Part shown: positions 1,893-28,225 of the stretch, one piece after another | How positions within the stretch are numbered: position 1 is the stretch's first letter | Layout of the letters: every line of letters starts with the position of its first letter | DNA from: Candidatus Woesearchaeota archaeon | GTDB lineage: Archaea > Nanobdellota > Nanobdellia > Woesearchaeales > GW2011-AR9 | Reading direction: 5' to 3' | DNA length: 64,000 nucleotides | Assembly (NCBI GenBank): GCA_016179955.1 | Contig: JACPCD010000005.1 | Location: 10,323-74,322, forward strand | The notes under the pieces: model-generated | The model's input: only the letters and a program-made list of their open reading frames with translations | Databases searched by the model: none | Told to the model about the DNA's origin: nothing | Made by a program: the position numbers and the translations under genes

Positions 1893-3677
1893 ATGGAAAA
1901 AAAGAAAGAAGAGTTGTCCATTCAGGGACCGGTTGGCCGGCAGAGCGAATTGCATAAAGAGGGTCCTGACCGTGCTTCCACCTCTCCCGCTAACAACAGT
2001 GAGGAGGGAGCAATATCCCGTAACTACGCTCGTTGGTCGGACCACGCCGCGGCGAAGATCTCCTCGTTTCTTAAAGATAAATATAACTTGGCATTTTTAG
2101 TGGTGTTATTTTTAGCTTTTCTGATCCGCCTGAAGTACATCGGACAGGAAAGCATCTGGAATGACGCAGCCGTGCATTTATGGTATGCGATTAAAGTAAC
2201 TCACCAGCCGCTTTTTATTTTTACTCAAGAATATCTGTTAGGTGATTATGCTACGGTTCAAACCTTAACCGCTTTTTTGTATTTGTTCACTAAGAATGTG
2301 TTGCTGGCAGGGCAAATCGTCGCTATGTTTTATGCGATTATCGGAATCATATTCATGTATCTTTTAGGAACTGAAATACGCAGCCGATTTACGGGATTGA
2401 TGGCGGCAACCTTATTAGCGTTTAATCATCTTTTTTGGTTTTACAGTGCTCGTCCGTTGGGAGATTCGCCACTTCTAGTTACTACCATTGTCCTTCTGTA
2501 TTGTATGGTCAGGTTGGAAAAAGAGAAAACTCTCCGCTGGGGGATACTCAGTGGGGTTATGTTTTTAGCAGCCATGTTTACAAAGCAACAATCTGTTCTT
2601 TACATCTTCGCCTTAGTGATTTATGTGCTTTTGTTTAGACGAAAGGAAATGTTCAAAAATAAGGCCTTGCTCGCCTCTTGGCTCATTCCCGTGGTTTCCA
2701 TACTTATTGCCCATGTTGTTGGAAAAATTTTCTTTCATGCAAAAGTTTTAGATCGGATCTTCAAACTATTCTTTGATTTGCGGGGTCTGCCATTTGGATT
2801 CGAAGCAGCCGGCATGCTGCAATGGATATTTTCGTGGTACCTGATTCCTTTTGTTATTATCGGGGCTTTGCTGGTCATTTTCTACCGAGAGAAAAAGTAC
2901 TATTTTGGACTGACCCTTTTTGCATTTTATTATCTGTTCTTTGAGGTAAATGTTGATAATACCCAAGATCGCTATGTTCTCCCGTTGTTTTCCATCGCCA
3001 TACTCTTGGCAGTCTTCGCCTTGGAAGAAATAAGCACTTACATCTCCATGTTTATCCATAAGTTTGCCAAACCAATTATCGTCATTGTCGTAGTCATTTT
3101 CATTAGCTGGAATTATTATCAGGTAGGCGATGCTCTCAATTATAATAAATCTTTTAGTTATTTGGGCTATCAGGAAGCGGGGCAATGGATGAAAGAGAAT
3201 GTTCCTGCCAAAGATCCCATCTTTGTCGGTGAGTATCGCTCGATACGTGCTTTCTCCGAGAGAGAATTTGGTGGCCCTATGCTGGAAGATTACGGCGGTA
3301 ATATCATTAATCTGCGCTCACCATACCGCTACAGCACCGAAGGGGTCAAACCCAAAGAGGAAGAGCAGAGAAACTTTGAAGAAGATATTTTGGTCTTATC
3401 GCAAAGTCGTGATATCTATCTTGAAATTGACATCTGGGAATACGCCCAGCCGACCTGGTACTGGCCCTTATCGCAGGCAAGCCTGGATTATTTCGTAAGC
3501 CTCGGGTTTTATCCCGTCAAGATAATCGAACGGCCGGTGTTGACCAAGGATGGGCCAAAAACCATTCCAGTCATCTTTATTTTAAAGAAAGACCGTACCG
3601 GAACAACGGCCAATGGTTCTCTCCTACAGACAGCAGTTAATGATGAAACACAATGGCGGCAAAAGTTTCTCAATTAG
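1893..3677 (+). CDS. GT-C fold membrane glycosyltransferase (GT39/ArnT/PMT-like)
   Basis: 594 aa. Hydrophilic ~60-aa N-terminus, then more than 10 hydrophobic helices. Acidic first-loop motif (ESIWNDAAVH). Soluble C-terminal ~150 aa. Confidence 0.65.
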   Translation: MEKKKEELSIQGPVGRQSELHKEGPDRASTSPANNSEEGAISRNYARWSDHAAAKISSFLKDKYNLAFLVVLFLAFLIRLKYIGQESIWNDAAVHLWYAIKVTHQPLFIFTQEYLLGDYATVQTLTAFLYLFTKNVLLAGQIVAMFYAIIGIIFMYLLGTEIRSRFTGLMAATLLAFNHLFWFYSARPLGDSPLLVTTIVLLYCMVRLEKEKTLRWGILSGVMFLAAMFTKQQSVLYIFALVIYVLLFRRKEMFKNKALLASWLIPVVSILIAHVVGKIFFHAKVLDRIFKLFFDLRGLPFGFEAAGMLQWIFSWYLIPFVIIGALLVIFYREKKYYFGLTLFAFYYLFFEVNVDNTQDRYVLPLFSIAILLAVFALEEISTYISMFIHKFAKPIIVIVVVIFISWNYYQVGDALNYNKSFSYLGYQEAGQWMKENVPAKDPIFVGEYRSIRAFSEREFGGPMLEDYGGNIINLRSPYRYSTEGVKPKEEEQRNFEEDILVLSQSRDIYLEIDIWEYAQPTWYWPLSQASLDYFVSLGFYPVKIIERPVLTKDGPKTIPVIFILKKDRTGTTANGSLLQTAVNDETQWRQKFLN

Positions 3678-4573
3678 CCACGATCCAAGTCGATCTGGAC
3701 GGGTTATGGACCAATCTGCAGTATTATGGGCATGACGCGCCCGTAAGCCCCGATATCGTATTTACGTCGGGATTGCGCCGTTATCTGGATCTCTTTGAGG
3801 AATTAGGCATAAAAGCAACTTTTTTTGTGATCGGGAAAGATGTTGGCATTCCGGAAAAAAAAGTCTTGCTTCAGGAAGCTCATGAAAAAGGGCATGAATT
3901 GGCCAATCATACATTTACACACCCCTTTGGTTTCCGCAAATTATCAGCATCGCAACAACAGGCCGAGATTGAGCAAGGGGAAAGAGCTATAGGTTCCATT
4001 ACCGGCAAAAAGCCACGTGGATTCAAAGCGCCAGGGTATGATGTTGACACCAAAATATTATCCTTACTTGCAGAAAAAGGGTATCTTTATGATTCCTCTG
4101 TTATCCCCACCCCGGCATATCCTCTTTTAATGAAAATAAATAGTATTCTCACCCGCAGTGTCTCTCGAAACCATGGCCCGCGGTGGAGTTGGGGAATGGC
4201 TCCCAATGCACCCTATCATCCTTCGTCAAAAAAGGTCTGGAGGAAGGGAAATAATCCACTCTTGGAATTGCCGTGTACCACCTTTCCCGTACTACGAATC
4301 CCTATCCATGCCACCTTTGCCGTAAAATTAGGATACCCTTTTTTCCGAGGGGCATTAGAAGTCGTAAAGAAAAGGGCTATTCCTTTAAATTATGAATTTC
4401 ATGCTGCCGACCTGTCTGACACTATCATCGACTCACGTCTGGGGCACCTGCAAGGGATCCCAATAGAAAAAAGAATGGCTTTAGTACGAAAGATGTTAGC
4501 AGCTATCTCCACCAATTATGAGCTTCGGACTTCTATTGAGTTGGCTCAGGAGTTTATCACCCATGGCCATTGA
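3653..4573 (+). CDS. Polysaccharide deacetylase (CE4 / NodB-homology)
   Basis: KATFFVIGKDV and ELANHTFTHP motifs (NodB metal/catalytic motifs). Directly upstream of a FemAB-like gene, as in EPS loci. Confidence 0.85.
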   Translation: MAAKVSQLATIQVDLDGLWTNLQYYGHDAPVSPDIVFTSGLRRYLDLFEELGIKATFFVIGKDVGIPEKKVLLQEAHEKGHELANHTFTHPFGFRKLSASQQQAEIEQGERAIGSITGKKPRGFKAPGYDVDTKILSLLAEKGYLYDSSVIPTPAYPLLMKINSILTRSVSRNHGPRWSWGMAPNAPYHPSSKKVWRKGNNPLLELPCTTFPVLRIPIHATFAVKLGYPFFRGALEVVKKRAIPLNYEFHAADLSDTIIDSRLGHLQGIPIEKRMALVRKMLAAISTNYELRTSIELAQEFITHGH

Positions 4574-5615
4574 ACTATTAACTCCACACACTGAATCGGA
4601 ATATGCAAGGTACGTCGAGCATCATCCTCGTGGAACTATAGAATTTTTAGTAGGATGGCGAGACTTATTGCAAACAAATTTTAAGTTTAAACCAGTCTAC
4701 CTCATACGAAAAAATTCTAAAGAAGTTATTGATGGAGTTCTTCCTTTGTCTTTAGCAAAGAGTATTTTTGGTACGCGGCTTGTATCCCTGCCCTATGCAG
4801 TTTCAGCAGGTGTATTGGCTGATTCTGAAGAAGCACTCAAAGAATTAGTATCTTTTGCCGAAGAGTTGGCCCGAACTGAAAAAGTCGATTTTATAGAGAT
4901 TCGTGAATCTGAAAAAGCAACACTTTATCCGGCATCTTTTCGTTGCTCCCAAAGCGTCTTCTCTTTTTCTTTAGCCTTAAGTCCAGATGTTGATGCGGTC
5001 TGGAAAAAACTTCCTAAAGGGAGCGTCCGCTGGGGTATAAAGAAAGCGGAAAAAAGCGGATTAACCCAGAGGCATGGAAACTCCAAAGAATACCTCGATG
5101 ATTTTTATCAGCTCTTCCTGCAAACCAGGAAATATCGTGGCGTTCCAGCCTACCCCTATTCTTATTTAAAAGGGATCATGGACTTATTTAGTGATAAAGC
5201 CCGTATTTACATCGCTGATTATAACCAAAAACCGGTTGCCGGGATACTTTTATTATATTATAAACAGGAAGTGCGTTACGCTTTTGCTGGTGCGATACCC
5301 CATCCTAAAATATTGCAGTTGCAGCCGTACCATTTACTCTTATGGCCGGCAGTTAAAGATGCTTGTGAGCGCGGATATACTGTGTTTAATTTTGGGGGCG
5401 CAGCCCTTACCACCAATGACGGGGGATTATATGAATTTAAGAAGAAATGGGCTGATAAAATCACCCCTATAGAATCTTATGTTTATACTCCTAAAAAAAA
5501 ATACGTGCCCCCGTCAGAAAGCCCGTTATTTAAGATGGCTGGAAAGCTATGGCAACATCTTCCTATTCCCATAGTTAAAGCAGTTAGCCCTTATGTTATT
5601 CGTCAGTTCGTTTAA
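4563..5615 (+). CDS. FemAB-family (GNAT-fold) aminoacyl/peptidyl transferase-like protein, paralog 1
   Basis: FNFGGAALTTNDGGLYEFKKKWA and C-terminal ...SPYVIRQFV are shared with paralogs at 13753 and 59548. The track start at 4518 overlaps the deacetylase by 55 nt; ATG 4563 (MAIELL...) overlaps by only 11 nt. Confidence 0.75.
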   Translation: MAIELLTPHTESEYARYVEHHPRGTIEFLVGWRDLLQTNFKFKPVYLIRKNSKEVIDGVLPLSLAKSIFGTRLVSLPYAVSAGVLADSEEALKELVSFAEELARTEKVDFIEIRESEKATLYPASFRCSQSVFSFSLALSPDVDAVWKKLPKGSVRWGIKKAEKSGLTQRHGNSKEYLDDFYQLFLQTRKYRGVPAYPYSYLKGIMDLFSDKARIYIADYNQKPVAGILLLYYKQEVRYAFAGAIPHPKILQLQPYHLLLWPAVKDACERGYTVFNFGGAALTTNDGGLYEFKKKWADKITPIESYVYTPKKKYVPPSESPLFKMAGKLWQHLPIPIVKAVSPYVIRQFV

Positions 5616-5620
5616 ATAAA

Positions 5621-5704
5621 ATGGCAAACTACAAAATATCTTTCCTGCAAAAGGAAGAGTACCATCATTATGTTCATTTGCCAGAAGAAAACCGGTTGGA
5701 GTAA
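5621..5704 (+). pseudogene. 27-codon remnant of a FemAB-like gene 5' end (MANYKISFLQKEEYHHYVHLPEENRLE*)
   Basis: Hand alignment with the start of the 13753 gene (MENYKISFLQEQDYGKY...): 10/14 aa and 33/42 nt identical over the first 14 codons. Similarity then decays and a stop follows at 5702-5704. Confidence 0.55.
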
Positions 5705-5708
5705 TAGA

Positions 5709-6422
5709 ATGAATACTAAAATTACAGTCGATGAAAATGAATTGCGTACGAAATGCCGATGGCCGAGAAACCCAGGCATTCTAGGGGATAAAATGATGGA
5801 TGAACTAGGGGTATATCTAGCGAAGCTACTCTTACATACCGCTATTGCCCCTAACCACTTGACGATTATGGGCTTATTTTCGGGTCTTATTGGTGTGGGG
5901 TTGCTTACTTTTCCTAATTATCTAATCGTTGGAATAGGATACCTCTTGATATTCCTTTTCGGGGTTATAGATTACACTGACGGTGTCATCGCGAGATATA
6001 AAAATATAGCTTCTGAGAAAGGGAAGTATTATGATGATTTAGGGCACTTCATTCCTCCCCTCATTTTTCTGGCAGTTGGGATACACATTCTTAACACTAC
6101 CGGGAACGTAACTGCAGTTATTTTAGGCGGGCTCTCATCATTTATGTACGTGAGTATTGACTTCAATGCAAAATTAATGAATCTCATCACTGGTGAAAAA
6201 AAGCATCAGCTTTATTTAACAGGTGCATCTCCCATCAGGTCCGCGATATTAAAGATACAGAAAAACCTCACTTTTGGGGTCCATATAATCATACTCTTCG
6301 GTATAGCTACCCTTGCAGAATATTTTATTCCTGAGAGTAGTTTCTACATGTTGCTATTTTTTGCTCCGTTCCTTACTCTTACTTTTTTTGCTCAGACATT
6401 TTTCTATTCTAGAAAACTATAA
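5709..6422 (+). CDS. CDP-alcohol phosphatidyltransferase-family membrane transferase
   Basis: DYTDGVIARYKNIASEKGKYYDDLGH fits D-x2-DG-x2-AR-x8-G-x3-D, but the last Asp position is His. Multi-TM. The track start at 5670 overlaps the remnant; ATG 5709 sits just after the remnant stop. Confidence 0.75.
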   Translation: MNTKITVDENELRTKCRWPRNPGILGDKMMDELGVYLAKLLLHTAIAPNHLTIMGLFSGLIGVGLLTFPNYLIVGIGYLLIFLFGVIDYTDGVIARYKNIASEKGKYYDDLGHFIPPLIFLAVGIHILNTTGNVTAVILGGLSSFMYVSIDFNAKLMNLITGEKKHQLYLTGASPIRSAILKIQKNLTFGVHIIILFGIATLAEYFIPESSFYMLLFFAPFLTLTFFAQTFFYSRKL

Positions 6423-6469: not shown

Positions 6470-7627
6470 TTAACTAATGCGCCGCAGGATGGTGCGCAAA
6501 GATTTTTCTGTAAGCTCCCGTGGATTGTTCTTTACCCTTTCCTGATTAAATCCATTGGCAACAATAATGTCGTGATCTTCCGGGGTGGTTATGTTAAGCA
6601 TGGCCAGTTTTCTGGTAAGTTCGATCTGATCCATAAGCTGGTTTATCTTTTGTTGCATCTCCTCTGGTGTCTGGACCCGAAAGATCGAACACAAATCGTC
6701 CATAGTTTTTTTAACATAGGCCGGTCCTCTTGTATCCAGACAATCTTCAGCATTTATTCCTGTATTATAAAGAGAAATTTCTCCTAAAGTCAAGGCACAG
6801 GCATGACCATGAGCAATGCCAAAATAAGATGTTAGGGGATAAGAGATGGAGTGGCAGGCGGTAGTTTTGGAAACATTTATCGCCTTGCCCGCAAGATTAG
6901 CTGCTTTCATCATGGCCGCACGATGTTGCAGTGAAGGATTAGTGACTGCAGATTTTAAATTATCTAAAACAATAGTAATTGCCTGCCGAGCGTAATCTTT
7001 TGATTCTTCTGTTGACTGATTGGACCAGTAGGATTCGACCGCATGACACAAAGCATCTATCCCGGTAGAAGCAGTAATATTCTTAGGCAAATTTAAAGTA
7101 AGGGTTGGTTCCAGGAATACATATTCTGGCAGCATCCATTCCTGATGAGCCAGAGAATATTTTTTTTTATGGATATAAACCACCGCAAAATGGGTTGCTT
7201 CAGAACCAGTTCCAGCAGTGGTGGGGATAGCAATCAGTGGTTTTGGTTTTTGGCTTGGCTCAATCTCTTTTTTGATATACCTCTCTGGTTCTTCCGGTTC
7301 CGCCACCAGAAAATTAATTGATTTGGCCATGTCCATGACGCTTCCTCCACCAATTGCAATAGCCAGATCGCTTTCAGCCTGTCGGAATAAAGCTATTCCT
7401 TTCTTAATGTCTTCAAGTTGCGGGTTGAGTGAAAAATCAGAGAAAGTAGTTACTTTATAAGCAGAAAGAAGCGGCTCCATCATTTCTTGTGCCCTTGAAT
7501 GTTGGTAAGAAATTTTACCAGTTACTAGAAATATTGAGGAAGGTTTTTCCTGTTCTAATACTTTTTTGAGACCAGCCAGGCTTCCTGAACCAACATATTC
7601 TTGCTGCATTTTTTGCATTTCAAGCAT
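6470..7627 (-). CDS. Iron-containing (group III) alcohol dehydrogenase; by context, phosphonoacetaldehyde reductase (makes 2-hydroxyethylphosphonate)
   Basis: 385 aa Fe-ADH architecture (GGGSVMDMAK glycine motif, His-rich metal region HAVESY...HGHACA). Lies 4 nt downstream of ppd on the same strand. Confidence 0.7.
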   Translation of the reverse strand: MLEMQKMQQEYVGSGSLAGLKKVLEQEKPSSIFLVTGKISYQHSRAQEMMEPLLSAYKVTTFSDFSLNPQLEDIKKGIALFRQAESDLAIAIGGGSVMDMAKSINFLVAEPEEPERYIKKEIEPSQKPKPLIAIPTTAGTGSEATHFAVVYIHKKKYSLAHQEWMLPEYVFLEPTLTLNLPKNITASTGIDALCHAVESYWSNQSTEESKDYARQAITIVLDNLKSAVTNPSLQHRAAMMKAANLAGKAINVSKTTACHSISYPLTSYFGIAHGHACALTLGEISLYNTGINAEDCLDTRGPAYVKKTMDDLCSIFRVQTPEEMQQKINQLMDQIELTRKLAMLNITTPEDHDIIVANGFNQERVKNNPRELTEKSLRTILRRIS

Positions 7628-7631: not shown

Positions 7632-8765
7632 TCATCTTTGAATAAATTCCATGAATTTATTTTTATTTTCCATCGGAGATTGCGTGGGCCGTCCTAGATC
7701 CTTACGCGCGCCTTTATTGCAGCGTATCTCTAATAATGCCGGACCTTTCCCTTGCTTAATTGTTAGTAATTCCTCCCGTATCTCCGTCGCATTCTCAGCA
7801 CTACAAAATGTTTTATACCCATTAGCTTTCGCTATTCCGGGAATATCAATAGCATTAGCGGCGGTAGGCTGTCCGCCAACGGAGTCATGGGCAAAATTGT
7901 TGAAAATGATATGGTTAAAGTTTGCTGGTCGTAATTTTCCGATGGTTGAAAGAACTCCCATATGCATAATTAAAGCTCCGTCCCCATCAAAACAATATAC
8001 TCTTTGATTCGGCTTCTGGAGAGCGATGCCTAAAGCGATGGATGAAGAATGCCCCATCGATCCGACAGTTAAGAAATCTTGGTGGTGTCCATGTCCTGCT
8101 GCTTTCCGAAACTCAAATAATTCCCGTGAGGTTTTTCCCGTGGTAGAGACAATGATATCACCTTTATCAAGAAGCGAGGCTACCAATTTAATTGCTTCCT
8201 CCCGAATCAAGGGGAAATGAGTCTCCTGTTTCGTTTTCAATGAATAGGAATCAAATGTCCCCTCTCGAACTACGAAAGCATAAGGAGTTTTAGTATTGTC
8301 CAAATGTTCAGCCGCTTTTTGTACTTCTTTTTTCACTTCCTCTTCACTTTCAGGAAGGATAGCATACGGAATTTCTAACACCTCCAGCAACGGCAAAGTT
8401 ATTCTGCCCATCTTGCGATGCTGCGGCTCATCTTTTTTTCCTGCTTCGCCCCGCCATCCGATGAGCAGCAGCAGCGGTAAGGAATAAATTTCTTTATCGG
8501 TAAGCGAGGTTAGAGGATTAATACAATTGCCTAATCCCGAATTCTGTAAATAAACTACGCCCACTCTTCCTGTTGCTAAATGATAGCCTGCGGCTAAGGC
8601 AATGGCATTTCCTTCATTGGCAGCAATGATATTATTTTTTGAAGAAGTATTATCTGTAACGTACGCACAGAAATCTTTCAACAGGGAATCAGGGACGCCA
8701 GCGTAAAAAGAAAAGCCGTGTCCATGCAATAGATTAAAAAAGTATTGCGGTGAAATCATCTCCAT
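7632..8765 (-). CDS. ppd: Phosphonopyruvate decarboxylase (TPP-dependent)
   Basis: N-terminus ...FFNLLHGHGFSFYAGVPDSLLKDF and TPP motif GDGALIMHMG...x...NN. Sits in a locus with PEP mutase. TATA geometry favours Met3 (ATG 8759) as a leaderless start. Confidence 0.85.
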   Translation of the reverse strand: MEMISPQYFFNLLHGHGFSFYAGVPDSLLKDFCAYVTDNTSSKNNIIAANEGNAIALAAGYHLATGRVGVVYLQNSGLGNCINPLTSLTDKEIYSLPLLLLIGWRGEAGKKDEPQHRKMGRITLPLLEVLEIPYAILPESEEEVKKEVQKAAEHLDNTKTPYAFVVREGTFDSYSLKTKQETHFPLIREEAIKLVASLLDKGDIIVSTTGKTSRELFEFRKAAGHGHHQDFLTVGSMGHSSSIALGIALQKPNQRVYCFDGDGALIMHMGVLSTIGKLRPANFNHIIFNNFAHDSVGGQPTAANAIDIPGIAKANGYKTFCSAENATEIREELLTIKQGKGPALLEIRCNKGARKDLGRPTQSPMENKNKFMEFIQR

Positions 8766-8899: not shown

Positions 8900-10438
8900 A
8901 TGAGTAAAAGTTCGCTTCCGATAATTAATACTGGACCCGAAGAAGATTGTTTCAATTCGTCCCCACGACGACTCTCTAAAGTACCAATGACGCCTGCCCT
9001 AGAAACTTTGCTTAATCCCCATTTACATAACAAAGAAGCTATTTTTACAAGCCCCATAAGACCGCCCGCGGAGGGTGAGAAAATATACCATCTTTCAGAG
9101 GAACAGATTAAAGCACTAAGGGATTTGAGAGGAAACACTATTGATCTTCATCCCGGCATGGGCGGGATTGCCCCCCATAAACTTATTGACATGATTAAGC
9201 AAGGAAAACCGCTAACTTCTTTAGATTATATGATCACCAGAGGATGTAATTTTGAATGCACTTGGTGTTTCGCTGGGTCTGATCCTTATCAAAGAGATTA
9301 TCTTCCTTTTAACGTTCTTGAATCATTAACCACAGAAGCTGCGGATATAGGAGTAAGTTTATTTGTTCTCACTGGTGGGGAACCGTTGGTATATAAAGAC
9401 CCCGCTCTAGGAAAACAAAAGGAGCGAGGGGACCATTTTTTTAGAATTGTTCAAATGATCAGAGATACTTATAATAGAAAGGATAATCCGGCAAAGATCC
9501 TTACCTTTGATGATGTAGCCTTAATCACGCCGAAAATTGCCAAAAATTTCGCTGATTTTGAGGTTGGCTTATGTACAAAAGGCGATACTTTAAACCCGGA
9601 ATTGCAAGATTTTAAAGTCAATCAATCAGGAGCATTTAAAAAAATGCAACAGGGATACGAAAACCTGATGCATGTTGGATATGGTAAAAATCCAAAATTA
9701 CGCTTGGTTGTTAATTCAGTTCTGGACCACACCACTTTTGATGGAATAATCGATCTTCACCTGTGGGTCATGAAAAATGGATTTGATCACTCGATTGTTC
9801 CAGTACACTATTGCGGCAATGCTGAAAATGAGGATCAGGAGGCAGGAATACATTCTCCGCATGTAAAAGTCCTCTATGATTTAATCACCAGAATTGATGC
9901 TGCATATTTTGGTGTAAAATGGGAAGCTTGGTCTGCGTTTACGTACAATAAAACCTGTAACCGGAATAGATCGGGGTTGCACATCAGGGCCGATGGAGAC
10001 GTTACCGCGTGTTCAGAATCCCCAGGGAGATCTGAAACCAATAAATATACTTTTGGTAATGTTTTATCCGATAAAAATTTTTCACTTAGAACGCTAGCTA
10101 ATAGCCAACAATTAGCTGCTTACCGGGAAGAATTTGCTAAAGGACATGGCACCTATGTCTGCTCCCCAAAAGTATGTGATTTGTATGCTAATGATTTATG
10201 TCAGGGCGGTTGCGCAACTCGATCAGCGTATTCAAAAATTGATTATGAAACTGGTCTGATTGTAAAAAACGATAACCCCCATAGTTATAGTGAATTTAGG
10301 GAAGACCCTTTATGTCCTGCTTGGACCGTTCTTGCTGAACGCCAGGGCGTTCTTAAAAAAAGTTTACTGAGAGAAATTCATGATCGGCTACTTTCCAACA
10401 GTCAAAGTATAGAAGCGAGAGAATTCCCTTTTTCTTAA
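8900..10438 (+). CDS. Radical SAM enzyme with C-terminal Cys-rich SPASM/twitch-like domain; substrate unknown
   Basis: CNFECTWC (C116-x3-C120-x2-C123) plus the GGEPL glycine motif. C-terminal CSPKVCDLYANDLCQGGCATRS. About 100-aa N-terminal extension with no motif I recognise. Confidence 0.8.
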   Translation: MSKSSLPIINTGPEEDCFNSSPRRLSKVPMTPALETLLNPHLHNKEAIFTSPIRPPAEGEKIYHLSEEQIKALRDLRGNTIDLHPGMGGIAPHKLIDMIKQGKPLTSLDYMITRGCNFECTWCFAGSDPYQRDYLPFNVLESLTTEAADIGVSLFVLTGGEPLVYKDPALGKQKERGDHFFRIVQMIRDTYNRKDNPAKILTFDDVALITPKIAKNFADFEVGLCTKGDTLNPELQDFKVNQSGAFKKMQQGYENLMHVGYGKNPKLRLVVNSVLDHTTFDGIIDLHLWVMKNGFDHSIVPVHYCGNAENEDQEAGIHSPHVKVLYDLITRIDAAYFGVKWEAWSAFTYNKTCNRNRSGLHIRADGDVTACSESPGRSETNKYTFGNVLSDKNFSLRTLANSQQLAAYREEFAKGHGTYVCSPKVCDLYANDLCQGGCATRSAYSKIDYETGLIVKNDNPHSYSEFREDPLCPAWTVLAERQGVLKKSLLREIHDRLLSNSQSIEAREFPFS

Positions 10439-10631: not shown

Positions 10632-11999
10632 CTAAACCTTATTTCTTCCTTCTTGGTTAAACCAGGGAATCATTTCACCAAAAGCACGGGCAGAATTCTG
10701 TTTCCCTATCAACGAAAGTTCTCGCTGAGGTTCACCCGCAACCCTTCCGCCAATTCTCAAAACTAATAATTTTCCATCCGGTCCGCGAAAATTATGTGGA
10801 ACAAACGGCTTTACATACATAGAGTCGTTTGGCATGATGGATTCGCAATACTCGTGGTCATCAGTGCGCCAGTTAATGTTCACTGGTGAATTTCCCACAT
10901 TATACACATATTGATGCAGGCCGACTTTAAGATCTAGGATGTCTCGGTTTTTATCGGACTGTTTAAGAACTTTCAACTCCAAGGCCCGGGAGTGGGATAG
11001 ATGACTTGTTCTTGCCAATTCCACCAATTTATACGCTGGATCAATACTGGGAAAATCCCATCTCCGGTTAGTTCTATAATAATTGACCAACACTTTCTTT
11101 TGTATATCGTCTGGAGGCAGTAATTCCCGCCGGTCAATATTTAATGCTTCTGCCAGCGCTTCGAGGTCATCAGGTTTTGGTAAAACCGTTCCCAATTCAT
11201 ATTTTTCTAAAAGAGATAAAGAAAGTCCAGTTCTCCGAGTTAATTCCGGATGATCAATACCGGCTGCTTCTCTATGAAACCGTAGCAGAGAAGCAGCTGC
11301 TTTTTCTCGAGTAGAAAAATCCAAGGCATAATCAGCGGCAAGTTCTGGACCTATTGCAGATAATTCTTGTTGTGTTTCTCCGGCAAGCTTATTTCCATAG
11401 GTTAAAGCAAGAATAAGTCCTTTCTCGCCAGCCCTATTCTTGCGGGTGGCAAATGTATGCGGAACAAACGGAGTAATATACATGGAGTCGCCGGTATTCA
11501 TGACCGCAACTTTTTTATCCCCCCTTTCTCCTTTGTAATAAAAATTAACCGGACCGATAAAGTATGTAAATTGATGCAGGAAGTGTCCATTGTTCCATTG
11601 CACTGCCTGATGGTTAGCACTATTGTTATCTACTATGCACAGTTCTTTGATCCATTCCGGCCGAAATTGGCCGACCGTGCTGGCAACTGTATCGCGATAT
11701 TCATAATACGGCTGGCCGGCACGTTTCATAACCCGGCTAGTTTTGGCGGATTCTTTCGCTCGCATGATTTTAACACCGATTGGACAATCATCGTTGACAC
11801 AATAGAAATCACGTTCGTTGACCGGCCATATCCCTGCTGCTCGCCTTATTAATTCCGCCGGAATCTCTTTCTCACCACTTAAATAATAATTAAGTTCGTC
11901 CACTGGGATCTTAAGGTCAGCTGCTGCATCTTCCGGTCGGCGTTTGAGATCATTCAGAATGCCTAAGAGATTCTGCGCGCTTCTTTTTTTATAGTTCAT
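10632..11999 (-). CDS. mpnS: HEPD/MPnS-family non-heme Fe(II) 2-hydroxyethylphosphonate-cleaving dioxygenase; residue pattern predicts methylphosphonate synthase
   Basis: 455 aa with two (HTH + cupin) repeats. The first cupin has H139, Q143, H181 with F153 and I175. All five sit at a constant -9 offset from the N. maritimus MPnS residues H148, Q152, H190, F162, I184 as I recall them. No Glu at the position of the HEPD Glu ligand (I175 instead). Codons verified on the DNA (CAC 11585-11583, CAA 11573-11571, TTT 11543-11541, ATT 11477-11475, CAT 11459-11457). Confidence 0.65.
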   Translation of the reverse strand: MNYKKRSAQNLLGILNDLKRRPEDAAADLKIPVDELNYYLSGEKEIPAELIRRAAGIWPVNERDFYCVNDDCPIGVKIMRAKESAKTSRVMKRAGQPYYEYRDTVASTVGQFRPEWIKELCIVDNNSANHQAVQWNNGHFLHQFTYFIGPVNFYYKGERGDKKVAVMNTGDSMYITPFVPHTFATRKNRAGEKGLILALTYGNKLAGETQQELSAIGPELAADYALDFSTREKAAASLLRFHREAAGIDHPELTRRTGLSLSLLEKYELGTVLPKPDDLEALAEALNIDRRELLPPDDIQKKVLVNYYRTNRRWDFPSIDPAYKLVELARTSHLSHSRALELKVLKQSDKNRDILDLKVGLHQYVYNVGNSPVNINWRTDDHEYCESIMPNDSMYVKPFVPHNFRGPDGKLLVLRIGGRVAGEPQRELSLIGKQNSARAFGEMIPWFNQEGRNKV

Positions 12000-12104
12000 T
12001 TTATTCCAGTTGGGGCTACTATGTCAAAAATATGCCACCTGCCTATTTGACCGGTGGACCATGTCCCTCGGTGTGGTTTTCGGCAGCATATTGGGATTGG
12101 AGTC

Positions 12105-13409
12105 TCATTCACCATTTGGTATTAGAGTAATAATTTCTTTAATGGACATGCATTGTTCATTACTTGCTTCATAACTTCGTTTATTCTTTAAAATAGATTC
12201 TGCTGTTTTTACCATAGCAGGATAAGCACTACGCAATAAATGATTAGCATATACAACCATATTAACTCCTGCCGTAATAAGTTCTTCTTCAGTGATTATA
12301 GAATAGGTGCTAGGGACCACGACTAAACTTACTTTAGTCTCAAATTTTTTGTATTCCTTGCAAAACTGTAAAATTTCTTCCGGGTTCTTTTCTTTACTAT
12401 GGATCATTATTCCATCAGCTCCAGCGGCAATGTATGCTTTTGCTCTTTCCAGGGCGTCAGCTAAACCTTTCTTTAGAATTAAACTTTCTATTCTCGCAAT
12501 AATCATAAAATCATCGGAAGCCTGAGACTTTTTCCCTTCTGAAATCTTGCGGCAAAAATTTTCTATTGTATCCTGATTTTGCTCTACTTCAGTTTCAAAA
12601 AGAGAATTTCTTTTCGAACCAATTTTATCTTCAATTACCACTGCTGAGACGCCCAATCTTTCCAAGGTTTTTACCGTAAAGCGGAAATGTTCAATTAATC
12701 CTCCGCTGTCAGCATCTACCAGCATTGGTTTAGTAGTTACCTCAAAAATTTCACTTACAGTGTTGCCTATAGAGGTAATATCCACATATTCAATATCTGG
12801 TTTACCTTTAGAAGTAGCATGGGTCAAACTGCTTAACCAAGTGGCATCAAATGTTTTGGGGACATTATCTTCATCTTTCACCATGGTTTTTTCAACAATA
12901 ATCCCGGTTAAACCATTATGGGCTTCTAAGATGCGTATCATGGATTTAGCGTCCAGCAAACGCCGCAGCATATTGCGGCGAATATCGGGGGTAATTCCTC
13001 TTTGTTTAACTTTAGTTATTAGCTGGGTTGAAGAAATCCCCTGAGTATAAAGCGGTTCAACAACTTGGCCGCCCCATTCTTTCATCACCTCTATTACCCT
13101 TTGGCGCTTTTTTGCCTGTATCCCTATTTTCCAGTCATCGCCATGAACAAAATAATCCGGCTTTAATTCTCGTATGGCGGGGATGTAATCGTCATCTTCC
13201 TGCGCATAGACCTTGCTTACCGTGCGTATATTTTCAATAACTTTTTTACGCTGCTCAAAAGTCAATATGGGGAGCCGCTTATAATTAGCAATGGCCCGAT
13301 CGGTCAGAAGCCCCACTGTCACTTCTCCAAGTTTGCTGGCTTCATTAAGAATATTCATATGGCCGTCGTGGAGTAAATCGGCAGCCATGGGAACATATAC
13401 TTTTTTCAT
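12105..13409 (-). CDS. pepM: Fusion of a cytidylyltransferase-like domain (HxGH) and phosphoenolpyruvate phosphomutase
   Basis: N-terminal MAADLLHDGHMNIL (HxGH nucleotidyltransferase motif, ~135 aa). The C-terminal ICL/PEPM fold carries the PepM-diagnostic EDKIGSKRNS (EDK-x5-NS). SD-like GTGAGGT lies 8 nt upstream of the ATG. Confidence 0.85.
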   Translation of the reverse strand: MKKVYVPMAADLLHDGHMNILNEASKLGEVTVGLLTDRAIANYKRLPILTFEQRKKVIENIRTVSKVYAQEDDDYIPAIRELKPDYFVHGDDWKIGIQAKKRQRVIEVMKEWGGQVVEPLYTQGISSTQLITKVKQRGITPDIRRNMLRRLLDAKSMIRILEAHNGLTGIIVEKTMVKDEDNVPKTFDATWLSSLTHATSKGKPDIEYVDITSIGNTVSEIFEVTTKPMLVDADSGGLIEHFRFTVKTLERLGVSAVVIEDKIGSKRNSLFETEVEQNQDTIENFCRKISEGKKSQASDDFMIIARIESLILKKGLADALERAKAYIAAGADGIMIHSKEKNPEEILQFCKEYKKFETKVSLVVVPSTYSIITEEELITAGVNMVVYANHLLRSAYPAMVKTAESILKNKRSYEASNEQCMSIKEIITLIPNGE

Positions 13410-13752
13410 CTTGGTACCTCACTTTTACCTAGTTTTCATCTTGCTTCTGGTTAAAAAATAGTATATAAACTTTCGGGAACAGCAATACCTTTTCTTCTGC
13501 ATTCAACTAAGATAAATAATCAAAGTGTTTATTAAGCGTTTTTATATTTTCATCATATACCACTACCAGCTACCGTGAGATTGTCTGCAGAAAACAATCT
13601 TTATTTCAAAATATTAATAAATACCCCTTTATGTTTGATAACTTGGCTACTCCAGAATGGAAAAAGAAGTAATTATATGTTAAAATGAAAGAAACTATTA
13701 ACATAATTATATAACCAATCTTTGTTACCAGTTCATCCCGTATATTATCAAA

Positions 13753-14802
13753 ATGGAAAATTATAAAATCTCTTTTCTGCAAGAGCAAGATTATGGTAAA
13801 TATGCTTCTTTCCTCAAAGAATGTCCCGAAGCATTATACGAACACGACCTCGCAATTAAAGACTTAGTTGCTAAACACTTTAAATTTAAACCAAGCTATT
13901 TAATTGCGAAAGAAAACGAAAAGATAGCTGGGGTTCTGCCCATCTTTGAAGCTAAAAGTATCCTGGAAGGAACCCGGTTTGTTTCCATTCCTTTTTTCCC
14001 TTTCGGCGGGGTTATTGGCAAGGATATTGACTGCAAAAGGCAGTTGCTGGATAAAGCGAAAGAGCTGGCAGCCAATGCTAAATTCCTCCAGATACGGCAG
14101 CGTGAAGAGCTTCTCCCGGAGTTAGTTCAAGAGATGGTGGTGCAGAAGCCCATCACCAATTTTTTTATTGATCTTAAAAAAGGAGAACCAGAAATGTTTG
14201 CTTCCCTGGATAAAAGCATCCGCTATGACATACGAAAAGCCCAGAAACACCATCTTCCTGTCGTTATTGGCACTACCCCTTTACTTCTGAATGATTTTTA
14301 TACCGTATACTTAAATACGCGGAAGAAGCGGGGAGTTCCTGCCTGGCCGTACGGCTTATTTCAACAGGCCTTGCAGAACTGCAACACAAAAGTCGCAGTA
14401 ACCTATCATCAACAAAAACCAATTGCGGCCAGTTTCCTGTTTATGGATAAAGAAACTATCGAATACGCCTTTGCCGGGACCGATTATCGTTACTCCTGGA
14501 TGTGTCCCTACTATCTTTTAATCTGGGAAATCATTCGTTTTGGTATTCGCAACAATTACAAGACTTTAGAGCTTGGTGGTTCTACCAGAGAGATGAATGA
14601 TGGAAATATGTACCTGTTCAAAGACCAGTGGGCCACCCGAAAAGCGGAGATTCCGTATTACTTCTATGCTGCTGATCCTCAAAATATTCCTTCCCTGCAC
14701 CGTTCCTTTGCTCTCTACCGTTGGTATGGCCGTTTTTGGCGTTTGCTTCCCACGGCAGTGATTAAAAGAATAAGCCCATTCATTATACGCCAGTTTGTGT
14801 AA
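13753..14802 (+). CDS. FemAB-family transferase-like protein, paralog 2
   Basis: Same architecture and C-terminus (...SPFIIRQFV) as the 4563 gene. LELGGSTREMNDGNMYLFKDQWA core. Confidence 0.75.
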   Translation: MENYKISFLQEQDYGKYASFLKECPEALYEHDLAIKDLVAKHFKFKPSYLIAKENEKIAGVLPIFEAKSILEGTRFVSIPFFPFGGVIGKDIDCKRQLLDKAKELAANAKFLQIRQREELLPELVQEMVVQKPITNFFIDLKKGEPEMFASLDKSIRYDIRKAQKHHLPVVIGTTPLLLNDFYTVYLNTRKKRGVPAWPYGLFQQALQNCNTKVAVTYHQQKPIAASFLFMDKETIEYAFAGTDYRYSWMCPYYLLIWEIIRFGIRNNYKTLELGGSTREMNDGNMYLFKDQWATRKAEIPYYFYAADPQNIPSLHRSFALYRWYGRFWRLLPTAVIKRISPFIIRQFV

Positions 14803-14841
14803 CCTCAAACATATAAACTAATACGAAAAAATTAAACCCCC

Positions 14842-15882
14842 ATGAACACCATCCATCGACGACTGGAACGAACCTTGGCTGCCTTTTCCGGGGTCAAGAA
14901 TGCAGTTCTTTTCAGCTCCTGCCGCAATGCTCTGTATACTTTACTTTTAAGTTTACAACTAAAGCCGGGAGATGAAGTAATCATTCAGTCATTCATTTGC
15001 GACAGCCTGACTCAGGCCATCCGTAAAGCTGGAGGGGCCGTTGTTTTTGCGGAAGTGGAACCATCCACACTCAACCTCCATCCACGAGAGATCCAACGAA
15101 AGATAACCCCTCAAACGAAAGCAGTTGTTTTTGTCCACACCTATGGAAATACATCAAATATAAATCAAGTCCAATCTTTATGCCGGAAGAAAAATATTAT
15201 CCTTATTGAAGACATCGCTCATGCTCTTGGTGCTACTTACCGAGGGAAACCCGCCGGTAGTTTTGGTGACTATGCCATTTATAGTTTTACCAAACAGATG
15301 ATCAATGTTGGCGGGGGTGCTCTGCTCAGCAATAAAGACCTTTCTCTCGTGCGTCGATTGCGTGACCAACCGAAAGCTAAAGCAAATTTTTTAGATTATG
15401 GTAAGCGGTTATTTGCCTCCCTATACGAAACCAGGGCTTTCTGGCTCTCCAAACTGATGATTGACTCGGTACGTTCCCGTCAAGATTTAAAGCTTGTTAA
15501 TGCTCTTTCCCCTCACTTCACCTGCAGTACGCTCGAAGCATATCTTGCCTTGCGACAGCTGAAATCCCTCTCACTGCTGATACGTAAGCGGCAGCGGAAT
15601 TATGAGTACCTCGCCAGATTCGTTAAAACTCAACAAGTTGTGAAAAAAGCAAGTTCCAGTTATAATTATCTTTCTTTTCTCTTTCCTAATAGCATCACCA
15701 GAGATCGTGCCTTACAAAAAAACTTTCTTTTTCTCCCCCCCTGGCCCGGAGCGGAAGTTTCCAGCACCCTGTTGTTTGTACCCAACAACCCTTTCTTTTC
15801 CAAGAAAAAGCTTCGTTTGTTAGTGCAGTCATACAATAAAGTTTATAAGCACCCGGCTGCGGGGACTATTCATGGAAAATAA
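14842..15882 (+). CDS. DegT/DnrJ/EryC1-family PLP enzyme (short, divergent), paralog A
   Basis: IEDIAHALGATYRGKPAGSFGDYAIYSFTKQMINVGGG, including the candidate Schiff-base Lys. Paralog of the 57775 gene. Confidence 0.65.
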   Translation: MNTIHRRLERTLAAFSGVKNAVLFSSCRNALYTLLLSLQLKPGDEVIIQSFICDSLTQAIRKAGGAVVFAEVEPSTLNLHPREIQRKITPQTKAVVFVHTYGNTSNINQVQSLCRKKNIILIEDIAHALGATYRGKPAGSFGDYAIYSFTKQMINVGGGALLSNKDLSLVRRLRDQPKAKANFLDYGKRLFASLYETRAFWLSKLMIDSVRSRQDLKLVNALSPHFTCSTLEAYLALRQLKSLSLLIRKRQRNYEYLARFVKTQQVVKKASSSYNYLSFLFPNSITRDRALQKNFLFLPPWPGAEVSSTLLFVPNNPFFSKKKLRLLVQSYNKVYKHPAAGTIHGK

Positions 15883-16225
15883 TACCAAAGCGATTCTGCT
15901 GGCGTTGATCTGCACCGCCATCGTGTCCGTGGCGCAGATATTCCTCAAACAAGGCAGCGACGCATTTTCTCTTTCTTTGGACCAGATCTATAATTACCCG
16001 TTGCTGGCGGGAGTTGTTCTCTATTTTGCCGGGGCGGTCGTTTTAATCTATGCCTTTCGCCTGGGAGAACTTTCAGTTGTCTACCCTGTTATGGCATCAA
16101 GTTACGTGATTGTAACCATTTTATCCAGCATCTATCTGCAGGAGCCCATCATCCCCCAGAAATGGATTGGCATCAGTTTAATCACTTTGGGCGTCATTAT
16201 CATCGGCCGGGGAGGGAAATCATGA
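15872..16225 (+). CDS. Small 4-TM EamA/SMR-like protein (ArnE/ArnF-like flippase subunit candidate)
   Basis: 117 aa with four hydrophobic helices. Paired with a second small subunit via an ATGA overlap. Confidence 0.6.
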   Translation: MENNTKAILLALICTAIVSVAQIFLKQGSDAFSLSLDQIYNYPLLAGVVLYFAGAVVLIYAFRLGELSVVYPVMASSYVIVTILSSIYLQEPIIPQKWIGISLITLGVIIIGRGGKS

Positions 16226-16557
16226 ATCTTCCGTTGGCCGTAACTTTTATTTTTGTGTCTTCCATCTTTGGCGCCTTTAGTACGCTGCTGTTCAAGATGG
16301 GCTCTCTTTTACGCATTAATCTCAAAAATAAAAAAATGATAGGGGCAGTGCTCCTGGCGGGGGTTTCTTTCTTTTTTTATCTCCGTGCCCTGCAGCAAGC
16401 TCCCCTGACATTCATTTACCTTACTGCGTCCATTAGTTATATTTGGGCTATCGTCCTTGCCCGGCTGGTACTTCACGAACGTATAACTAAGTATAAAATT
16501 ATAGGTATAAGTTTGATTTGCCTCGGTATTATCTCACTTTATGTACCCTGGTCGTAG
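16222..16557 (+). CDS. Small 4-TM EamA/SMR-like protein, second subunit
   Basis: Start moved to ATG 16222 (MNLPLAVTF...): ATGA overlap with the upstream stop, and GGGAGGG 5 nt upstream. The track start at 16162 adds a non-hydrophobic His-rich leader in the overlap. Confidence 0.6.
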   Translation: MNLPLAVTFIFVSSIFGAFSTLLFKMGSLLRINLKNKKMIGAVLLAGVSFFFYLRALQQAPLTFIYLTASISYIWAIVLARLVLHERITKYKIIGISLICLGIISLYVPWS

Positions 16558-16584
16558 AATTTAAAGAACGACATACTTATCACT

Positions 16585-17322
16585 ATGGCAGCCAGCACCA
16601 AACTATCCCTCATTGTTCCCTGTTATAACGAAGAGCGTGGCATTCAGAATCTCTATCATCAGCTTGCGCCCGTACTCGATAAATTAGAAAAGGAATATTC
16701 CCTTGAAGTTATTTTCGTAGACGATGGGAGCAAGGATCAGACCGTTGCGCTTCTCCAGCAATTCTTTAGCGGGAAAAAGTATGTTCAAATTGTCCGCCAT
16801 GAGGTAAACAAAAACTTGGGCGCTGCCGTCCGCACCGGTTTTGCTCATGCAACCGGTGACATCATCATCACCATGGATAGCGATTGCACCTACGATCCGC
16901 AGGGCATTTTTCCCATGCTCCAGCTTTTGGACCGTGGTACTTCGATCGTGACTGCTTCTCCTTACCATCCTTTAGGCGGCATCCGAAATGTGCCGAAGTA
17001 CCGCCTATTTTTAAGCAAGTCTATTACGGGCATCTATCGTTTCCTGACTGGGGCAAAAATCTACACTTTTACCGCCCTGTTCCGGGCGCAGCGGAAAGAA
17101 GTGGTGCAGAACATCCTTTTTAAGTCTAATGATTTTCTGGCCACCGCCGAAATTCTAGTTTCCGCTCTAAACCAAGGCCATCATGTAAAAGAATACCCCA
17201 TGGTCCTCAGCGTACGGGAGTTTGGTGAGTCCAAGATGAAACTATTGAATGTCATTTGGAGCCATCTTAAATTTGCGACGAGTTTAGTTCCCCAAAGAAT
17301 AAAAAGGGGTTTAAAGCCATAG
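16585..17322 (+). CDS. GT2 polyprenyl-phosphate glycosyltransferase (DPM1/ArnC-like)
   Basis: LSLIVPCYNEE...FVDDGSKDQT...MDSDCTYDP (GT-A DxD region). 245 aa, soluble type. Confidence 0.75.
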   Translation: MAASTKLSLIVPCYNEERGIQNLYHQLAPVLDKLEKEYSLEVIFVDDGSKDQTVALLQQFFSGKKYVQIVRHEVNKNLGAAVRTGFAHATGDIIITMDSDCTYDPQGIFPMLQLLDRGTSIVTASPYHPLGGIRNVPKYRLFLSKSITGIYRFLTGAKIYTFTALFRAQRKEVVQNILFKSNDFLATAEILVSALNQGHHVKEYPMVLSVREFGESKMKLLNVIWSHLKFATSLVPQRIKRGLKP

Positions 17323-23918: not shown

Positions 23919-23938
23919 TGTTTCGAAAGGTTTAAATG
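23919..23938 (+). promoter_or_regulatory. Degenerate decamer TGTTTCGAAA + 2 nt + TATA-like TTTAAATG
   Basis: TATA centre is 25.5 nt upstream of ATG 23960. The decamer matches TGTTCCAGAA at 7/10 positions. Confidence 0.4.
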
Positions 23939-23959
23939 CGCACCTGCTCCCTCAAAAAT

Positions 23960-25042: not shown

Positions 25043-25070
25043 AAAATCAGGGGAGTGTTTAAAGAAATAT

Positions 25071-25100
25071 GGGAGAAATAAGAATATTTATTCCTCTCCC
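25071..25100. terminator. Hairpin downstream of the synthase gene (GGGAGA/TCTCCC plus AATAA/TTATT stems, CC bulge)
   Basis: Paired by hand. Lies 29 nt after the stop at 25042. Confidence 0.3.
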
Positions 25101-25133
25101 TGGACGTTACTTTCACTAATGGTTGTTTAGAAA

Positions 25134-26839: not shown

Positions 26840-26842
26840 TTT

Positions 26843-28174: not shown

Positions 28175-28225
28175 GTCAGCAAAATAATCGGGATGTAGTC
28201 TAGGGGCAGGTTTGGTGGCTCACGT

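Follow-up and report, generated by a model that had tools for sequence, protein, structure and literature searches.

A candidate route for the activation and surface attachment of methylphosphonate in a phosphonate cassette of Woesearchaeota

How a small phosphonate is activated and attached at the surface of an archaeal cell is the question raised by a 64-kb stretch of DNA (the window from here on) from a Candidatus Woesearchaeota archaeon, whose exact NCBI protein matches are MBI2145786, MBI2145790, and MBI2145791, all from a Candidatus Woesearchaeota metagenome-assembled genome (MAG) within the DPANN archaea. At one end of a phosphonate cassette, the window carries a gene for a phosphoenolpyruvate (PEP) mutase (PepM) with an N-terminal cytidylyltransferase (CyTase) domain, and at the other end a gene for a membrane enzyme of the CDP-alcohol phosphotransferase family. 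The first-pass annotation had supposed that this pair may activate the end product of the pathway as a CMP conjugate and install it on a lipid or glycan acceptor. We found that a coupling of the two enzymes is plausible and partly supported, and we give about one chance in two to the full mechanism, in which a CMP-phosphonate made by the fused CyTase would be attached to a glycan precursor by the phosphotransferase, which belongs to a subfamily with a histidine in place of the fourth aspartate of the family signature (the His-variant subfamily).

The PepM gene (12105-13409, minus strand) is a single open reading frame (ORF) of 434 aa that includes both the CyTase and the PepM domains. The N-terminal HxGH (HDGH) cytidylyltransferase-like domain of about 135 aa that had been noticed in the first-pass annotation is confirmed by Pfam, in which aa 11-132 match CTP_transf_like (PF01467) with E 7.9e-17 and 62 bits (cut-off 21), and it contains the CyTase motifs H14-D-G-H17 (HxGH), HGDDW (89-93), and YTQGISST (121-128). 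The best PDB match of aa 4-136 is the CyTase domain of Fom1 (5x3d; E 3.8e-47, 57% identity), and every residue that is invariant in 13 PepM-fused CyTases is also kept in the window domain. According to this identity, a CTP:2-hydroxyethylphosphonate (2-HEP) cytidylyltransferase activity can be predicted for the fused domain. The C-terminal part matches Pfam PEP_mutase (PF13714, aa 148-407, E 4.1e-55) and the NCBIfam equivalog TIGR02320 (386 bits, cut-off 319.6), and the PepM-specific motif EDKxxxxxNS is found as EDKIGSKRNS at about aa 260-269, which identifies it, as far as sequence can, as a true PEP mutase forming phosphonopyruvate from PEP. The fusion itself is not new, because Fom1 has the same architecture and the PF01467-Ppm class has already been counted: in fosfomycin biosynthesis the N-terminal domain of Fom1 makes CMP-2-HEP (PMC6697681, PMC9088020), and PF01467-Ppm fusions represent 23.6% of the non-redundant Ppm proteins in RefSeq (Rice 2019, PMC6697681). 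The two features of this class, an N-terminal HxGH domain and the motif [R/Y]TxGIS[ST]T on the PepM polypeptide, are both present in the window protein, and similar fusions (52-64% identity) are found in Clostridium, Treponema, and other archaeal MAGs, all of them without a methylphosphonate synthase (MPnS). The fused domain is the sole PF01467 enzyme (GCT/ECT/CCT-type) in the 64 kb. The remaining nucleotidyltransferases of the window resemble RmlA/GlmU (sugar-1-phosphate) or CMP-nonulosonate synthetases, and we rejected them for this reason as suppliers of a CDP-alcohol.

The gene next to pepM encodes a protein that matches the MPnS of Nitrosopumilus maritimus (PDB 6b9s) with E 2e-158 and hydroxyethylphosphonate dioxygenase (HEPD, 6b9r) with E 6e-83. 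In the work of Born et al. 2017, MPnS reportedly has a 2-His-1-Gln iron site (H148, Q152, H190) together with F162 and I184; the residues H139, Q143, H181, F153, and I175 of the window protein align to H148, Q152, H190, F162, and I184 of the N. maritimus enzyme, while HEPD carries Y and G where MPnS has F162 and I184. These diagnostic residues are invariant among 16 relatives, so that the protein can be assigned from its alignment as a bona fide MPnS, although its identical NCBI entry, MBI2145790, is annotated merely as 'helix-turn-helix domain-containing protein'. With a phosphonopyruvate decarboxylase (Ppd) that is 76-85% identical to those of sister cassettes and an Fe-dependent alcohol dehydrogenase (Fe-ADH) that is 69-72% identical to theirs, the predicted methylphosphonate (MPn) pathway of the window is complete (PepM, Ppd, Fe-ADH, and MPnS). 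At the level of the enzyme families, PepM would convert PEP to phosphonopyruvate, Ppd would yield phosphonoacetaldehyde, Fe-ADH would reduce it to 2-HEP, and MPnS would use O2 to release MPn.

Two of these phosphonates could be the substrate of the fused CyTase. The N. maritimus MPnS acts on free HEP, and since the window enzyme is strongly conserved with it, MPn is the expected end product of the cassette and, for this reason, CMP-MPn is most probably the donor. CMP-HEP is a possible donor by analogy, because its formation is the reaction of Fom1. That the closest characterised CyTase, Fom1, uses HEP and not MPn weighs against an MPn-specific activation, and the sequence does not discriminate between both substrates. 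We found 14 positions (P7, A9, L13, D15 inside the HxGH motif, M18, N42, F51, R62, Y68, D73, A78, which is T in the L096 locus, E81, F87, and K101) that are fixed in all eight MPnS-linked CyTases and differ from Fom1 and from the HEP-type and 2-aminoethylphosphonate (AEP)-type fusions. This signature was rejected as evidence for MPn over HEP, given that it comes from one clade only, so that it may reflect lineage rather than specificity, and has no mapping onto the ligand contacts of 5X3D.

The presence of a CDP-alcohol-family membrane enzyme at the other end of the cassette was also borne out. It is the only such gene in the window, it matches Pfam CDP-OH_P_transf (PF01066) with E 5.5e-8 (33.8 bits, gathering cut-off 22), and its ATG start at 5709, giving 237 aa, agrees with the homologue P0001 and with the gene call of the protein collection. 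The AlphaFold (AF2) model (pLDDT 91.4) is an all-helical membrane protein whose best Foldseek matches are AF2299, IPCT-DIPPS (TM 0.66-0.68), and PIPS, with overall TM values of 0.62-0.68, and a profile comparison with AF2299 gave E 4e-29. The domain matches of both the fused CyTase and this protein are far beyond chance. AF2299 (4O6M) and IPCT-DIPPS (4MND) of Archaeoglobus fulgidus have the same membrane fold as the window transferase and the same D1xxD2GxxAR...G...D3 segment of the signature. In IPCT-DIPPS, a cytidylyltransferase is joined to a CDP-alcohol transferase that takes a soluble CDP-alcohol as donor, whereas the window protein does not have an N-terminal cytosolic domain; furthermore, both A. 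fulgidus proteins belong to a compatible solute or lipid context and the window transferase to a glycan and phosphonate one.

The full PF01066 signature, D1xxD2GxxAR...GxxxD3xxxD4, is not present in the window transferase. Its sequence is DYTDGVIAR-x8-G-KYY-D-DLG-H, that is, DxxDGxxAR-x8-G-xxx-D-xxx-H, in which D1, D2, G, A, R, G, and D3 are kept and the fourth position is a His (DYTDGVIARYKNIASEKGKYYDDLGH) that aligns with the fourth Asp of AF2299. This fourth Asp is the proposed catalytic base of CDP-alcohol phosphotransferases, and its replacement by His is a point against the proposed function, for which a conventional catalytic mechanism is assumed. A profile search that covered 1.84 billion cluster representatives gave 3640 relatives with E values no higher than 1e-3; of these, 499 reach 1e-10 or lower and only 8 reach 1e-30 or lower. 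As 102 of the 150 best relatives have His at the position of the fourth Asp, the alignments define a large uncharacterised subfamily and not a degenerate copy.

To place the window cassette among its relatives, more than 80 MPnS loci from genome contigs, metagenome contigs (80 loci), and exact-protein look-ups were screened by tblastn and motif regular expressions. They fall into a type A, with an MPnS at least 68% identical to that of the window, and a type B, with an MPnS 53-58% identical to it; genes were counted in type A loci with at least 5 kb downstream and in type B loci with at least 5 kb on both sides. About ten DPANN-type loci are related to the window cassette, and the named type A members are Nanoarchaeota and Woesearchaeota MAGs, several of them from groundwater assemblies (Hain-H51 contigs). 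The PF01467-PepM fusion is found in all type A members. A CDP-alcohol phosphotransferase is present in all six type A loci with enough flank (the window, L001, L002, L013, L017, and L096), in or beside the cassette and always from the same His-variant subfamily, and PF12804 nucleotidyltransferases and sulfatases are absent from all six. In five of these loci the gene order is CyT-PepM, MpnS, a 298-aa ORF, Ppd, Fe-ADH, cytidylate kinase, CDP-OH_P_transf, GT2 (on the opposite strand), PMT_2, and GFO oxidoreductase, the PMT_2 gene coming after the CDP-alcohol gene in L001, L002, L013, and L096. A CMP-releasing step fits this arrangement, because the cytidylate kinase adjoins the transferase in the sister operons, and it suggests a dedicated recycling of CMP in these genome-reduced DPANN cells. 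The GT2 beside the CDP-alcohol gene of L001 resembles, with scores below cut-off, the polyprenyl-phosphate sugar synthases AglJ, Dol-P-hexose transferase, PpgS, and ArnC.

Type B comprises Nitrosopumilus, Dehalococcoidia, and other marine contigs, whose PepM stands alone and whose Ppd is split. A PF12804 nucleotidyltransferase is present in 16 of 16 of these loci and sulfatases in 15, and a CDP-alcohol gene in none of the 16. We also observed an intermediate MPnS cluster (L023, 6871-12871) with a PF12804-PepM fusion, the 298-aa ORF, and a stand-alone PF01467-like cytidylyltransferase that is 34% identical to the window domain, so that two nucleotidyltransferase families are found in one MPn cassette.

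The transferase could alternatively be a lipid head-group synthase condensing CDP-archaeol, or CDP-diacylglycerol (CDP-DAG), with 2-HEP into archaetidyl-hydroxyethylphosphonate, a step for which the fused CyTase is not needed. Its best NCBIfam and PDB relatives include the synthases of archaetidylinositol phosphate (AIP), phosphatidylinositol phosphate (PIP), and di-myo-inositol phosphate phosphate (DIPP), whose acceptors are phosphorylated alcohols; HEP is similar to these, and CMP is released in both types of reaction, so the cytidylate kinase fits either. Moreover, CDP-alcohol phosphatidyltransferase genes in bacterial pepM clusters, those of Nostoc and Burkholderia, have been read as phosphonolipid genes (PMC5987646). 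However, the window protein scores far under the cut-offs of all the head-group synthase equivalogs (46 vs 180 bits for archin_ph_syn, 25 vs 170 for PIPSynth, and 20.5 vs 109 for pgsA), members of its subfamily are found in polysaccharide loci (with Wzy, Wzz, a flippase, glycosyltransferases, and PMT_2) and fused to an FkbM methyltransferase or to a GINT1-like domain, and no CDP-archaeol synthase gene was seen in the window. On such a route MPnS would also be circumvented, and the conserved fused CyTase would have no function. All this makes a phosphonolipid synthase very improbable, and the identity as an ordinary phospholipid synthase was rejected on the scores, the genomic contexts, and the domain fusions. 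From the lipid or glycan acceptor that had been proposed, the neighbouring genes favour a glycan or a lipid-linked sugar and not a bulk membrane lipid.

Is the His-variant subfamily tied to pepM? We read twelve of its genomic contexts, a small sample chosen by the length of the contigs; eight have a pepM within 10 kb, namely the six type A loci, L097, and L099. The HEP-type cassette L097 has no MPnS, and its PF01467-PepM, Ppd, and Fe-ADH precede Wzz and the transferase. In the AEP-type cassette L099, a tandem pair of CDP-alcohol genes comes after PF12804-PepM, Ppd, a nucleotidyltransferase, an AEP-type aminotransferase, and a sulfatase. Since pepM is an uncommon gene, with 1485 non-redundant Ppm proteins counted in 113,086 genomes (PMC6697681), these two independent additional co-occurrences among six non-seed contexts are, even in a small sample, far more than expected by chance. 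Accordingly, neither of the two outcomes that the first-pass annotation had named as fatal to its proposal was found: the transferase does not group with ordinary archaetidyl or phosphatidyl synthases, its best NCBIfam match reaching 46 of the 180 bits needed, and its subfamily is conserved next to pepM at six of six DPANN cassettes as well as in L097 and L099. The four contexts with no pepM nearby (P0003, L095, the P0291 context, and L098), which count against the link, are polysaccharide loci that encode nucleotidyltransferases and flippases together with B12 radical SAM, PHP, and Phosphodiest proteins.

Two side observations concern these contexts. PHP-domain phosphoesterases and PF01663 Phosphodiest proteins recur beside His-variant genes (L095, 10001-12351; L013, 1103-6299; and the P0003 context), and the PHP gene of L095 is flanked by two CDP-alcohol genes, which may represent a conserved multi-enzyme module. 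In addition, B12 radical SAM genes are abundant around the His-variant CDP-alcohol genes of L095, L098, and the P0291 context.

The coupling in the window itself has to be weighed against another possibility, which we consider unlikely but not negligible: the CyTase would activate the phosphonate of the pathway, but the window transferase would serve the PMT_2-deacetylase-FemAB module, with an ordinary CDP-alcohol or another phospho-substituent, and a different transferase would use the CMP-phosphonate. Several findings point in that direction and weigh against the coupling. The window CDP-alcohol gene runs towards Fe-ADH on the strand opposite to the cassette and comes last in a separate plus-strand PMT_2-deacetylase-FemAB operon (1893-6422); its product is only 29% identical to the type A in-operon copy; and P0003 (44%), the nearest homologue whose surroundings could be read, comes from a deacetylase-FemAB-DegT-GT4 locus where pepM is absent within 10 kb. 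L095, the P0291 context, and L098 likewise lack pepM and have nucleotidyltransferases of their own. Furthermore, the cytidylate kinase found in all sister cassettes is lacking in the window, and the four to five sister loci, being close relatives of each other, represent approximately one evolutionary event. On the other side, among the 60 ORFs scanned in the 64 kb we found no LicD, no sulfatase-family transferase, and no PF01467-type enzyme other than the PepM-fused one, the gene directly follows Fe-ADH in the same position as the sister-locus copies, and the subfamily recurs beside pepM in three types of cassettes. The arrangement in the window fits either the recruitment of an existing phospho-substituent transferase to a new donor or mere adjacency. 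The proposed partnership of CyTase and transferase is supported by the Fom1-type domain and the conservation in six of six loci, and is weakened by the strand and the 29% identity of the window copy and by the pepM-free P0003 locus.

A further alternative comes from Fom1 itself. In the fosfomycin system, the B12 radical SAM methylase Fom3 uses CMP-HEP as a transient handle, which FomD afterwards hydrolyses, and here CMP-HEP could likewise be a handle for a tailoring enzyme, such as the radical SAM/SPASM protein encoded inside the cassette (8900-10438), and be hydrolysed later with no transfer to a macromolecule. The closest characterised homologue of the fused CyTase works in this way (PMC9088020, PMC6697681), and the radical SAM gene lies inside the cassette both in the window and in L018, where it is kept in the same place (2913-4082) at 85% identity. 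The protein has a CxxxCxxC motif at aa 116-123 (CNFECTWC) and no NCBIfam equivalog, specific family, or PDB match, and its membership in the pathway is uncertain. However, it is of the SPASM type and lacks a B12-binding domain, unlike the methyltransferase Fom3, and its gene is absent from the other DPANN-type cassettes whose sequence continues past MPnS (L001, L002, L013, L015, L016, L017, L019, and L096), all of which keep the fused CyTase. The position of the radical SAM gene is taken in other DPANN-type cassettes by the unrelated 298-aa ORF (L001, 12753-13649), which has no Pfam, NCBIfam, or PDB match. Neither an adjacent Fom3 nor a FomD is found: the sole B12 radical SAM gene of the window is 37 kb away, and there is no FomD/DUF402 hydrolase among the 60 ORFs scanned. 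The strong conservation of MPnS with an N. maritimus enzyme that takes free HEP also speaks against this reading, and a transfer step is favoured by the presence of a cytidylate kinase, CDP-alcohol transferase, GT2, and PMT_2 in the sister loci. We therefore regard a transient cytidylylation as improbable.

Under the favoured mechanism, the CyTase domain would use CTP and MPn (and/or HEP) to form a CMP-phosphonate, and the His-variant transferase would transfer the phosphonyl group to a hydroxyl on a glycan precursor anchored in the membrane, probably a dolichyl-phosphate-linked sugar, with release of CMP. In the sister loci this CMP would be recycled by the cytidylate kinase of the operon. 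The decorated sugar would then be flipped and delivered to the cell surface by the PMT_2 (GT-C) enzyme. A broader generalisation, which we offer only tentatively and hold to be rather doubtful, is that the His-variant enzymes form a dedicated family attaching phosphonyl or small phospho-substituents to prokaryotic surface glycans, which in DPANN archaea would be methylphosphonate from the CMP-MPn made by the PepM-fused CyTase.

The logic of activation with CTP followed by transfer is known from the synthesis of eukaryotic phosphonolipids through CMP-AEP. The fosfomycin producer Streptomyces wedmorensis has in Fom1 (PDB 5X3D) the same PF01467 HxGH CyTase with a C-terminal PepM as the window, with HGDDW and YTxGISST kept, and both cassettes make 2-HEP via Ppd and Fe-ADH. 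They differ in the MPnS, the CDP-alcohol phosphotransferase, and the glycan context of the window, in which an adjacent Fom3-type enzyme and FomD are missing. The marine clusters of the Nitrosopumilus maritimus type have, like the window, PepM, Ppd, Fe-ADH, and an MPnS with the same active-site residues (55-58% identity), lie as the DPANN clusters do in surface-glycan regions, and are thought, also like them, to yield MPn esters, which in N. maritimus were described by Lockwood 2022 (PMC9381506). In contrast to their stand-alone PepM, split Ppd, stand-alone PF12804 nucleotidyltransferase, and sulfatase-family genes, with no CDP-alcohol enzyme, the DPANN cassettes combine the PF01467 fusion with a fused Ppd and a CDP-alcohol phosphotransferase, to which the sister loci add the cytidylate kinase. 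The MPnS taxa and neighbours listed in that work (LicD, choline kinase, adenylyltransferase, arylsulfatase) include no DPANN archaea and no CDP-alcohol enzymes (PMC9381506). The Pnt systems (Rice 2019, PMC6697681) share with the window the activation of a small phosphonate with CTP, the subsequent cell-surface transfer, and a nucleotidyltransferase fused to or adjoining Ppm, but they use the PF12804 protein PntC, a LicD-like phosphotransferase, and AEP, instead of PF01467, a CDP-alcohol phosphotransferase fold, and MPn or HEP; in fact, LicD is missing from the window, and no PF12804 gene lies closer to pepM than 30 kb. The combination of pepM, a nucleotidyltransferase, and a CDP-alcohol phosphotransferase in one locus is also found in the Nostoc and Burkholderia clusters and in Cobalt Borg genes 308-320, where a CDP-alcohol phosphatidyltransferase lies beside a PepM-CyTase fusion (bioRxiv 10.1101/2024.11.05.622173). 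These are AEP or 1-hydroxy-2-aminoethylphosphonate (HAEP) clusters that have been read as phospholipid or phosphonolipid genes and, unlike the window, have no MPnS. Pairing pepM with a CDP-alcohol enzyme is therefore not a new idea (PMC5987646; bioRxiv 10.1101/2024.11.05.622173). Among the papers searched, we found none that connects mpnS or methylphosphonate with DPANN terms. The novelty lies in a distinct, conserved DPANN-type MPn cassette, whose activation and transfer enzymes come from different families, and in the recognition of the His-variant subfamily.

Table 1. Position of the phosphonate cassette genes, of neighbouring glycan genes, and of the cytidylate kinase genes of sister loci.
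Feature	Position	Strand	Basis
N-terminal cytidylyltransferase domain, Fom1 CyTase type	13005..13409 (aa 1-135)	-	PF01467, PDB 5x3d, motifs
PEP mutase domain	12105..12974 (aa about 146-434)	-	PF13714, TIGR02320, PDB 5unc and 1m1b
Methylphosphonate synthase (MPnS), 2-HEP to methylphosphonate, O2-requiring (predicted)	10632..11999	-	PDB 6b9s, residues
Radical SAM/SPASM protein, 512 aa, between MPnS and Ppd	8900..10438	+	PF04055, PF13186
Phosphonopyruvate decarboxylase (Ppd), single-chain thiamine pyrophosphate (TPP) enzyme	7632..8765	-	TPP_enzyme_N, TPP_enzyme_C
Fe-dependent alcohol dehydrogenase, phosphonoacetaldehyde reductase giving 2-HEP (predicted)	6470..7627	-	Fe-ADH, ADH_Fe_C
CDP-alcohol phosphotransferase-fold membrane protein, His-variant, candidate phosphonyl transferase	5709..6422 (ORF from 5670)	+	PF01066, AF2 model
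PMT_2 (GT-C) glycosyltransferase, polysaccharide deacetylase, and FemAB-family genes	1893..5615	+	Pfam, NCBIfam
PMT_2 GT-C enzymes in the window	1893-3677 and 22172-23869		
Cytidylate kinase directly upstream of the CDP-alcohol gene, sister loci	L001 16015-16752; L013 12706-13410; L096 6504-7247; L017 about 14669-15364		

The surroundings of the cassette are in line with a glycan acceptor. By its gene content, the entire 64-kb window reads as a surface-glycan island, with NeuB, CMP-nonulosonate synthetases, many glycosyltransferases, two PMT_2 enzymes, a flippase, and Arn-like modules of DegT, an EamA pair, GT2, and deacetylase. The PMT_2, deacetylase, and FemAB genes immediately upstream of the CDP-alcohol gene have its same orientation and are probably the glycan-acceptor and delivery module. 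GC content falls to 0.37 across 12001-14000, the pepM end of the cassette, compared with 0.40-0.46 in the flanking sequence, and the cassette is bracketed by two FemAB paralogues that are 33% identical to each other; since both features fit an insertion, the phosphonate cassette looks inserted into an older FemAB-type glycan module. Rfam and tRNA scans of the window gave no matches, and a promoter and terminator scan gave counts equal to the shuffled expectation, with bacterial models that are not applicable to an archaeon.

Other parts of the island also deserve mention. Two Arn-like modules (13753-17322 and 57628-61320) each contain a DegT aminotransferase, two small EamA proteins (ArnE-like), and a FemAB-family protein, one of them with an additional GT2 (ArnC-like) and the other with a polysaccharide deacetylase; together with the two PMT_2 enzymes, their sequences point to a decoration of the surface via lipid-linked amino sugars. 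A nonulosonic-acid gene set (pseudaminic or legionaminic-like) at 23936-33115 includes NeuB, a PseB-like dehydratase, DegT aminotransferases, and two CTP_transf_3 CMP-sugar synthetases, and close to it (26333-35308) are a FabA-like dehydratase, a HAD protein, a thiolase, and a short-chain dehydrogenase/reductase (SDR), which hints at acylated sugars. The B12-binding radical SAM protein (50349-51902) adjoins a PterinBD-DUF4346 protein (49944-50312).

Finally, MPn esters from marine archaea and SAR11 are a proposed source of methane in oxygenated water, and to our knowledge the attachment of MPn to macromolecules has not been established for any organism. The DPANN cassettes offer a candidate route for this attachment, with a fused CyTase, a CDP-alcohol-type transferase, a cytidylate kinase, a GT2 resembling Dol-P-sugar synthases, and a GT-C enzyme, which differs from the PF12804 and sulfatase-family gene set of the marine producers. 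It also brings to attention a large uncharacterised subfamily of CDP-alcohol phosphotransferases of glycan loci in which the fourth Asp is replaced by His. The presence of MPnS in DPANN archaea extends the potential for MPn production to habitats such as groundwater, and its requirement for O2 implies an access to O2 that is unexpected in archaea usually regarded as anaerobes. If the broader, rather doubtful reading of the His-variant enzymes as a dedicated attachment family is true, the transferase would be the first MPn attachment enzyme to be identified, and non-marine Woesearchaeota, in groundwater and elsewhere, would be an unrecognised O2-dependent source of the methane precursor MPn.

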